Assembly (NCBI RefSeq): GCF_003334315.1
Contig: NZ_QOWR01000093.1
Origin: Escherichia coli
GTDB taxonomy: Bacteria; Pseudomonadota; Gammaproteobacteria; Enterobacterales; Enterobacteriaceae
Reading direction: 5' to 3' (one strand)
DNA: 5,652 nt
A program made the translations under genes and the position numbers. Below are positions 5,456-5,519 of the stretch, piece after piece (position 1 is the first letter of the stretch; each line of letters opens with the position of its first letter). The notes beneath the pieces are model-generated. The model ran no database searches, was not told the origin of the DNA, and saw only the letters and a program-made list of their open reading frames with translations.

Positions 5456-5519
5456 CGTTATTTTTATCGCACAAGGGTGGGCATCCCTGCCCGTAATGAC
5501 GTCCTTGAACCTGGGTAGG

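Follow-up and report, generated by a model that had tools for sequence, protein, structure and literature searches.

We found that the spacer between fimA and fimI in a 5,652-nt stretch of Escherichia coli DNA (contig NZ_QOWR01000093.1 of assembly GCF_003334315.1; hereafter the window) is very probably the locus of FimR2, a CsrA-binding RNA of 35 nt that is cut from the fim mRNA. The small hairpin located between the two genes is already known, as the core of that RNA. An abundant stationary-phase RNA called sRNA_35 was described by Raad et al. 2021 (PMC7914890), and the 35-mer of strain K-12, TTCAGGGACGTCATTACGGGCAGGGATGCCCACCC, is defined by the sequencing consensus and the cloning primers in the supplement of that article. 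It was renamed FimR2 by Raad et al. 2022 (PMC9723502), and the RefSeq annotation of K-12 MG1655 places the non-coding RNA fimR2 (b4838) at 4543674..4543708, between fimA and fimI. The window harbours UUCAAGGACGUCAUUACGGGCAGGGAUGCCCACCC at the equivalent place, since FimR2 starts 10 nt past the fimA stop in both sequences (K-12 fimA ends at 4543663). The comparison with K-12 suggested by the first-pass annotation of the window, which was made from the sequence alone, showed the entire spacer to be identical except for one base, an A for G at nt 5 of FimR2. That annotation had detected the hairpin without recognising the spacer as a small RNA (sRNA) annotated in K-12; the GGGA loop is not a neutral tetraloop, as it carries the GGA bound by CsrA.

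The predicted fold of the 35-mer in the window corresponds to the layout of FimR2, in which nt 18-31 form a stem-loop behind an unpaired 5' region. RNAfold returned .................(((((....))))).... at -9.2 kcal/mol for the 35-mers of both alleles. Folding of the isolated hairpin gave -7.7 kcal/mol, with four G-C pairs in the 5-bp stem and a 4-nt loop. This hairpin is central to the spacer in both its minimum-energy and centroid folds, and it is also present in those of a 141-nt context. There are two GGA motifs in the window FimR2, one in the single-stranded part and one in the loop (Table 1). CAGGGAUG, the sequence around the loop, agrees with the consensus for CsrA binding, which is reportedly CARGGAUG. 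The absence of a U-tract was correctly noted at first pass: the 8-nt tail of the hairpin, ACCCUUGU, contains three U.

Folding energies do not contribute to the argument. The spacer folds no better than its dinucleotide shuffles (z = -0.05, with 88 of 200 shuffles folding equally well), and the 141-nt context gives z = -0.93. A 5-bp stem with at least four G-C pairs is found in 8.5% of the shuffled spacers, and one that also has a GGA in its loop in 0.8%. We therefore dropped thermodynamic significance as evidence for the hairpin, whose non-chance status rests on the comparison between species and on published experiments. The initial description of the structure as weak holds with respect to these shuffles; it does not hold with respect to evolution, as this is the only conserved, covarying structure of the spacer.

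The biology of FimR2 has been studied in K-12. The fimAICDFGH mRNA is cut by RNase E on either side of a 35-nt piece just after the fimA stop, and the released FimR2 builds up in stationary phase (PMC9723502). It is not a primary transcript: it requires the fim switch recombinase FimB and increases upon deletion of FimE, it is degraded by an exonuclease specific for 5'-monophosphate RNA, and purified RNase E cleaves precursors with an extension at either end in vitro, a processing that is unchanged by the addition of CsrA (PMC9723502). Mutants that break the stem make FimR2 unstable, and a compensatory mutant rescues it, while mutations of the loop GGA abolish CsrA binding in both co-immunoprecipitation and gel-shift experiments (PMC9723502). 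A reporter fusion of fliJ to red fluorescent protein (fliJ-RFP) is ~80% repressed by FimR2, and mutants of the single-stranded 5' part lose this repression; base pairing between FimR2 and fliJ is a prediction of the authors (PMC9723502). They also proposed, without claiming proof, that FimR2 titrates CsrA, on the basis of the increase of pgaA and the decrease of flhDC upon FimR2 overexpression (PMC9723502).

Two genome-wide data sets for K-12 converge on the same place. In the CsrA cross-linking and immunoprecipitation (CLIP-seq) data of Potts et al. 2017 (PMC5694010), peak_443 spans 4543364-4543799, and its read maximum at +319 corresponds to 4543683, i.e. nt 10 of FimR2, equivalent to 5500 in the window (adjusted P value, padj, 2.4e-8). 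In the Term-seq data, a 3' end of fimA maps to 4543708(+); it has three entries in the published table, with ~8,800 reads in LB at an optical density (OD) of 0.4 and ~18,200 at OD 2.0 (Adams et al. 2021, PMC7815308). That position is the last nucleotide of FimR2, 4 nt beyond the stem, and matches 5475 in the window. FimR2 thus coincides with the signals of both methods, a match that is among the modest additions made here. Mapped transcript ends are present at the hairpin, contrary to the refuting result (no such ends) named in the first-pass annotation. Both ends of FimR2 lie directly 5' of UU (GG↓UUC and CC↓UUG). We infer that this fits the preference of RNase E, which is said to be RN↓WUU.

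To compare spacers between species, we scanned for FimI proteins in one genome per species, which yielded 30 loci in the genera Escherichia, Citrobacter, Klebsiella, Raoultella, Enterobacter, Kluyvera, Erwinia, Pantoea, Tatumella and Serratia, and we aligned 30 spacers, all from Enterobacterales and including those of the window and K-12. The loop GGA is invariant. All 30 spacers also harbour a second GGA 17-19 nt upstream of it (18 nt in the window). These distances fall within the reach of a CsrA dimer between GGA sites, which is reportedly ~10-63 nt. The stem, in contrast to the loop motif, varies in sequence: it is GGGCA/UGCCC in E. coli, GGGCC/GGCCC in Klebsiella, Citrobacter, Raoultella and others, GAGCC/GGCUC in Kluyvera, AGGCC/GGCCU in Erwinia piriflorinigrans and Serratia, and CAGGUC/GACCUG in an Erwinia metagenome-assembled genome (MAG). 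The four pairs at alignment columns 32-35/42-45 are unbroken in every spacer, and double changes, from GC to AU and from CG to GC or UA, are found at pairs 31-46, 32-45 and 34-43. The covariation score of the stem was 0.156, compared with 0.086 in shuffled alignments, none of which (0/500) reached the observed value, and it dropped to 0.031-0.089 once the 3' partners were slid by one to three columns. RNAalifold predicted this hairpin alone as the consensus structure, whether the E. coli rows were in or out. The invariant loop GGA, the paired changes in the stem and the fixed GGA spacing all argue for selection acting on the hairpin as a structured RNA that displays GGA. The explicit covariation test over ten genera is new here, and it is a modest addition to what was known.

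A mini-helix around the first GGA (columns 16-17 with 24-25) was considered and rejected, as it is 78% paired, shows no double changes and is not present in E. coli. Klebsiella spallanzanii (L005/L018) and K. grimontii (L006/L019) each harbour two separate fimA-fimI loci, and both copies in each genome have retained the GGA hairpin and the upstream GGA. The protein scan also returned FimI fragments on two short contigs, one of 458 nt labelled Xanthobacter autotrophicus (L028) and one of 411 nt labelled Prolixibacteraceae (L032), that are 99% and 90% identical to FimI of the window, respectively. The name of the former contig gives a coverage of ~0.75, and its spacer is E. coli-like. Both contigs most likely represent E. 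coli contamination of those assemblies.

The base that distinguishes the window from K-12 is a common natural variant. Exact matches to a 78-nt segment with the window allele (A5) were found in 611 genomes, and to the same segment with the K-12 allele in 3,236, among the ~4,727 E. coli genomes in which the locus is present. Because A5 keeps a purine before the first GGA (CAAGGA vs CAGGGA), the CsrA motif remains intact. RNAduplex predicted pairing of FimR2 nt 1-13 with codons 7-11 of fliJ, inside the published reporter segment. The A5 allele introduces an A·C mismatch in the predicted 7-bp seed, weakening it to -11.7 kcal/mol, compared with -18.3 kcal/mol for the K-12 allele. In 5,161 of 5,182 genomes, the fliJ site has the K-12 form; a CUG-to-UUG change in fliJ that would compensate for A5 was sought in A5 strains and dismissed, as it occurs in just 2 of the 5,182. 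Strain E2865, for instance, combines the A5 allele with an uncompensated fliJ site. This uncompensated natural variant of the FimR2 seed is also new.

We then considered the fimI start, for which the strength of the Shine-Dalgarno sequence was taken as the best duplex between the 25 nt upstream of the start codon and the 3' end of 16S rRNA. The sequence upstream of fimI, AUAAAAAUAACG, yields +0.3 kcal/mol, compared with -2.9 for fimH, -4.5 for fimC, -9.5 for fimD and -11.2 for fimF, in agreement with the earlier remark that fimI lacks a Shine-Dalgarno. Outside Escherichia, the spacers are 68-72 nt long, i.e. 4-8 nt longer, and a GAGG or GGGG motif is present 7-9 nt before the ATG in every genus except Tatumella (-4.2 to -10.8 kcal/mol), whereas the four Escherichia sequences range from +0.6 to -1.5 kcal/mol. 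Since the other genera, bar Tatumella, keep a clear Shine-Dalgarno, its absence at fimI is a lineage-specific loss in Escherichia rather than a property of the operon at large. This loss is another modest addition of the present analysis. In most spacers from outside Escherichia, the Shine-Dalgarno is preceded by one or two additional GGA motifs.

The spacer also separates genes expressed at different levels. The fimA mRNA was reported to be ~8-fold (PMC10673952) or, in another study, ~2.5-fold (PMC9277811) above the fimI mRNA, so that the lower expression of downstream genes invoked at first pass amounts to a ratio of 2.5-8 to 1 across the spacer. FimI ends the growth of the pilus rod, which requires an at least 100-fold excess of FimA over FimI protein, and different translation efficiency has been suggested as one extra cause of this excess (PMC10673952). 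The start devoid of a Shine-Dalgarno would reduce FimI output further, matching the need for at least 100 FimA per FimI. Codons 3-4 of fimI contain a GGA by way of the rare Arg codon AGG, and by eye most other genera likewise have a GGA there, with AUG CAA AGG AUG at the fimI start. This GGA may be a further CsrA motif or reflect a rare-codon effect. A 215-residue open reading frame (ORF) that extends the fimI frame through the spacer to a GTG at 5563 in fimA (4916..5563, minus strand) was rejected as an artefact of ORF listing, because the signal peptide and the annotated start begin at 5455.

Table 1. Features of the window discussed in the text.
Feature	Position	Strand	Remarks
fimA-fimI intergenic spacer	5519..5456	minus	exactly 64 nt, between fimA stop and fimI ATG
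FimR2 (sRNA_35, b4838), 35-mer	5509..5475	minus	34/35 nt identical to K-12 35-mer
Natural allele A5, A for G at FimR2 nt 5	5505	minus	alignment to K-12
GGA motif 1	5504..5502	minus	unpaired 5' part of FimR2; motif 2 follows at a distance of 18 nt
Hairpin, 5-bp stem GGGCA/UGCCC, loop GGGA	5492..5479	minus	FimR2 nt 18-31
GGA motif 2	5486..5484	minus	hairpin loop, CsrA contact; 30/30 spacers and published loop mutants
FimR2 3' end, equivalent of K-12 Term-seq fimA 3' end	5475..5474	minus	after C5475, before UU
fimI ATG	5455..5453	minus	no Shine-Dalgarno; anti-Shine-Dalgarno duplex +0.3 kcal/mol
GGA in fimI codons 3-4	5448..5446	minus	E. coli AUG AAA AGG AAG
Right end of IS186/IS421 (IS4-family) element in fimA	5652..5578	minus	terminal repeat ...CAACCCTTAAGTTAGCGCTTATG
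10-bp target duplication, GGCCGCAACC	5577..5568	minus	left junction seen in strain L73
Remaining fimA 3' end	5577..5520	minus	58 nt including stop; alignment to K-12
fimA stop TAA	5522..5520	minus	
fimI	5455..4916	minus	
fimC	4879..4154	minus	
fimD	4087..1451	minus	
fimF	1441..911	minus	
fimG, then start of fimH		minus	type 1 pilus operon of the window
fimG codons 1-3, ATG AAA TAG	898..890	minus	codon 3 is a stop
IS1 left end (GGTGATGCTGCCAACTTACTGATTTAG...) in fimH	1..~204		after codon 58 (...NLVV); adhesin truncated

The sequence in the window shares with K-12 FimR2 its position, 34 of 35 nucleotides, the hairpin, the loop GGA and the upstream GGA; it differs by the A at nt 5 and by its parent operon, which is interrupted by IS186/IS421. 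With the CsrA-sequestering RNAs CsrB and CsrC, FimR2 has in common a GGA in a hairpin loop and CsrA binding both in vivo and in vitro. In contrast with those RNAs, FimR2 contains two GGA sites rather than about 9-22, it is cut from an mRNA instead of being a primary BarA/UvrY-dependent transcript, and it has a second mode of action, on mRNAs, with which its single-stranded 5' region apparently base-pairs. FimR2 levels are independent of CsrB, CsrC and CsrD (PMC9723502). Similarly, FimR2 resembles CpxQ, SdhX and MicL, sRNAs processed by RNase E from mRNA 3' regions, in its release by RNase E, its 5'-monophosphate end and its organization, the seed being located in an unpaired 5' part and the hairpin on its 3' side. 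Unlike them, it is located between two genes within an operon and not at the end of one, it is devoid of a U-rich terminator tail, its 3' end also resulting from processing, and it is independent of Hfq and ProQ (PMC9723502). As for intrinsic terminators and pilus-operon attenuators, such as that after papA, the likeness lies in a GC-rich stem-loop right after the major pilin gene, with an adjacent RNA 3' end and lower expression of the downstream genes. In contrast, the FimR2 hairpin is not followed by a U-tract, its 3' end has been ascribed to RNase E, and the sequence of its loop is conserved, which terminators do not require.

The same features bear on what the hairpin does besides forming part of FimR2. 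That it is a chance structure without function in an ordinary intercistronic spacer would agree with the fold z-score and with the frequency of comparable stems among shuffled spacers, but compensatory changes across at least 10 genera, the invariant loop GGA and the published CLIP-seq, Term-seq, Northern blot and mutant data already refute this explanation, to which we give practically no weight. A weak intrinsic terminator or attenuator, at which polymerase would stop in part of the transcripts and thereby lower fimICDFGH expression, was the question raised by the first-pass annotation. It would be compatible with FimR2, as the terminated 3' end could double as that of the sRNA. The GC-rich 5-bp stem with its -7.7 kcal/mol, the K-12 Term-seq end 4 nt past it and the excess of fimA over fimI mRNA are in line with it, and a passage of the FimR2 preprint remarks on the likeness to an intrinsic terminator and cites Klemm 1984 as proposing one for fimA. 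Moreover, UUUUC directly follows the conserved hairpin in Erwinia piriflorinigrans and Serratia liquefaciens, and the Erwinia MAG has a U-rich tail with six U in eight; in those lineages the sequence of the hairpin region looks more like that of a true intrinsic terminator. However, E. coli and most genera have only two to four U in eight, our terminator scan of 4800..5652 revealed no terminator-like site at the hairpin, and the mapped 3' end, 4 nt from the stem, is outside any U run. RNase E cleaves the 3'-extended precursor in vitro (PMC9723502), and the terminator paragraph of the preprint is gone from the published version. Adams et al. do not list the site as a Rho termination region and have fimA in their Term-seq table only (PMC7815308); Term-seq cannot tell termination from processing. 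Thus, what stands of the initial suggestion is that a 3' end maps here and that mRNA levels drop; the missing U-tract and the attribution of the ends to RNase E speak against a terminator, which we consider unlikely.

The hairpin might instead protect the 3' end of processed fimA mRNA, providing segmental stability as in the pap operon, with FimR2 as the stable remnant: after downstream cleavage, the stem would block 3'-to-5' exonucleases, and fimA RNA would outlast the distal operon. The 3' end just beyond a stable stem, the mRNA gradient over the spacer, the destabilization of FimR2 by stem mutations and the conservation and covariation of the stem in all genera, regardless of the tail sequence, are consistent with such a role. 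However, it leaves unexplained the invariant loop GGA and the fixed 17-19-nt spacing, as well as the trans effects of FimR2 overexpression or deletion, and our literature search gave no half-lives for fimA vs fimI RNA. As a full account of the element it is possible, if somewhat doubtful. A further option is a cis-acting CsrA site, at which a dimer would bridge the GGA motifs of the spacer, perhaps with that of fimI codons 3-4, and act on fimI translation or local processing to set the FimA:FimI ratio and pilus length. In vivo CsrA crosslinks on the mRNA, the extra GGA motifs upstream of the Shine-Dalgarno in most non-Escherichia spacers and the recurrence of the GGA of codons 3-4 in most genera are in its favour. 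Against it, the E. coli hairpin ends 23 nt before the ATG, with no Shine-Dalgarno there to occlude, and CsrA did not affect RNase E processing in vitro. A possible, tentative GUUAUC/GAUAAC helix around the Shine-Dalgarno of non-Escherichia spacers is 81% paired, but it was missing from the RNAalifold predictions, whether or not the E. coli rows were included. We regard this option as distinctly improbable. Altogether, the spacer is a real RNA boundary, and termination, which is unproven as its cause, is less likely than processing followed by stem protection of the 3' end. The same hairpin would mark where fimA-containing RNA stops, and protection of that end by the stable stem would account for the excess of fimA over fimI mRNA.

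Several observations weigh against the identification of the spacer as a FimR2 locus, or limit what it implies for this genome. An Rfam covariance-model search of the whole window with E-values up to 1 gave zero matches, and FimR2 appears to have no Rfam family; there is hence no independent curated model to score it against, and this may be why the element is easily missed. Regarding the comparative evidence, the relatedness of the sequences makes the result look more significant in the shuffle control than it is, and some of the covariation hinges on how the E. coli loop, of 4 nt, is aligned with the loops of 5 nt in other genera. From the modelled duplex, the fliJ arm of FimR2 function may be weaker with the A5 allele. 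All of the functional evidence was obtained in K-12 and a few other strains, and none of it in this genome: CsrA binding has been demonstrated in K-12 and is predicted in the window from the GGA motifs. Release by RNase E in stationary phase is likewise a K-12 result, which would apply here by analogy, with an insertion sequence (IS) that separates the fimA body from the spacer. The 1.3-kb IS186/IS421 element, inserted 58 nt upstream of the end of the fimA stop, lies between the promoter side of fimA and the spacer. In a promoter scan of 4800..5652, the minus strand showed no sigma-70-like promoter from the end of the IS to fimI, the sole promoter-like site being on the opposite strand. As no promoter is seen between them, FimR2 expression here would need read-through from or across the IS.

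Other features of the window indicate the state of the operon. The IS186/IS421 insertion site is GC-rich (GGGGCCGCAACCCC), and the transposase has the same orientation as the fim operon. Strain L73, which is identical over this stretch, has an IS421-family transposase annotated here. When a 353-nt query across the fimA-IS junction was compared with 5,426 complete E. coli genomes, 45 of them covered 80% or more of its length. At the other end of the window, fimH is truncated by IS1, a junction absent from the complete E. coli genomes searched. The third codon of fimG is a stop, as against TGG in K-12; fimG is either a pseudogene or restarts downstream. In L73, which shares the fimA-IS junction, a shortened 'fimbrial protein' is found at the position of fimG, and fimD is frameshifted. 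The fim operon is decaying in this genome, with the FimR2 sequence intact inside it.

We finally considered how the element may have arisen. The conserved unit consists of a first GGA and, 17-19 nt downstream, a second one displayed by the covarying hairpin. It might originally have been a cis-acting, CsrA-responsive boundary setting the FimA:FimI ratio and pilus length, and the trans-acting FimR2 a later use of its stable remnant. We advance this origin as a speculation with a rather small chance of being correct. Consistent with it, Escherichia has lost ~10 nt including the Shine-Dalgarno, and A5 leaves the CsrA motif (CARGGA) intact while making the pairing predicted with fliJ weaker, with no compensation in fliJ.

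For the annotation of such loci, the lesson is that FimR2 has an entry in the RefSeq annotation of K-12 and none in Rfam, and that automatic pipelines and unaided readers overlook the element. For the biology of type 1 pili, the FimA:FimI ratio fixes pilus length, because FimI terminates rod growth (PMC10673952), and the fimA-fimI spacer is the place where that ratio must arise. The hairpin is at once an element of FimR2 bound by CsrA, an end point of fimA RNA and the neighbour of a fimI start devoid of a Shine-Dalgarno. This links pilus stoichiometry with Csr regulation and with the motility-biofilm switch.
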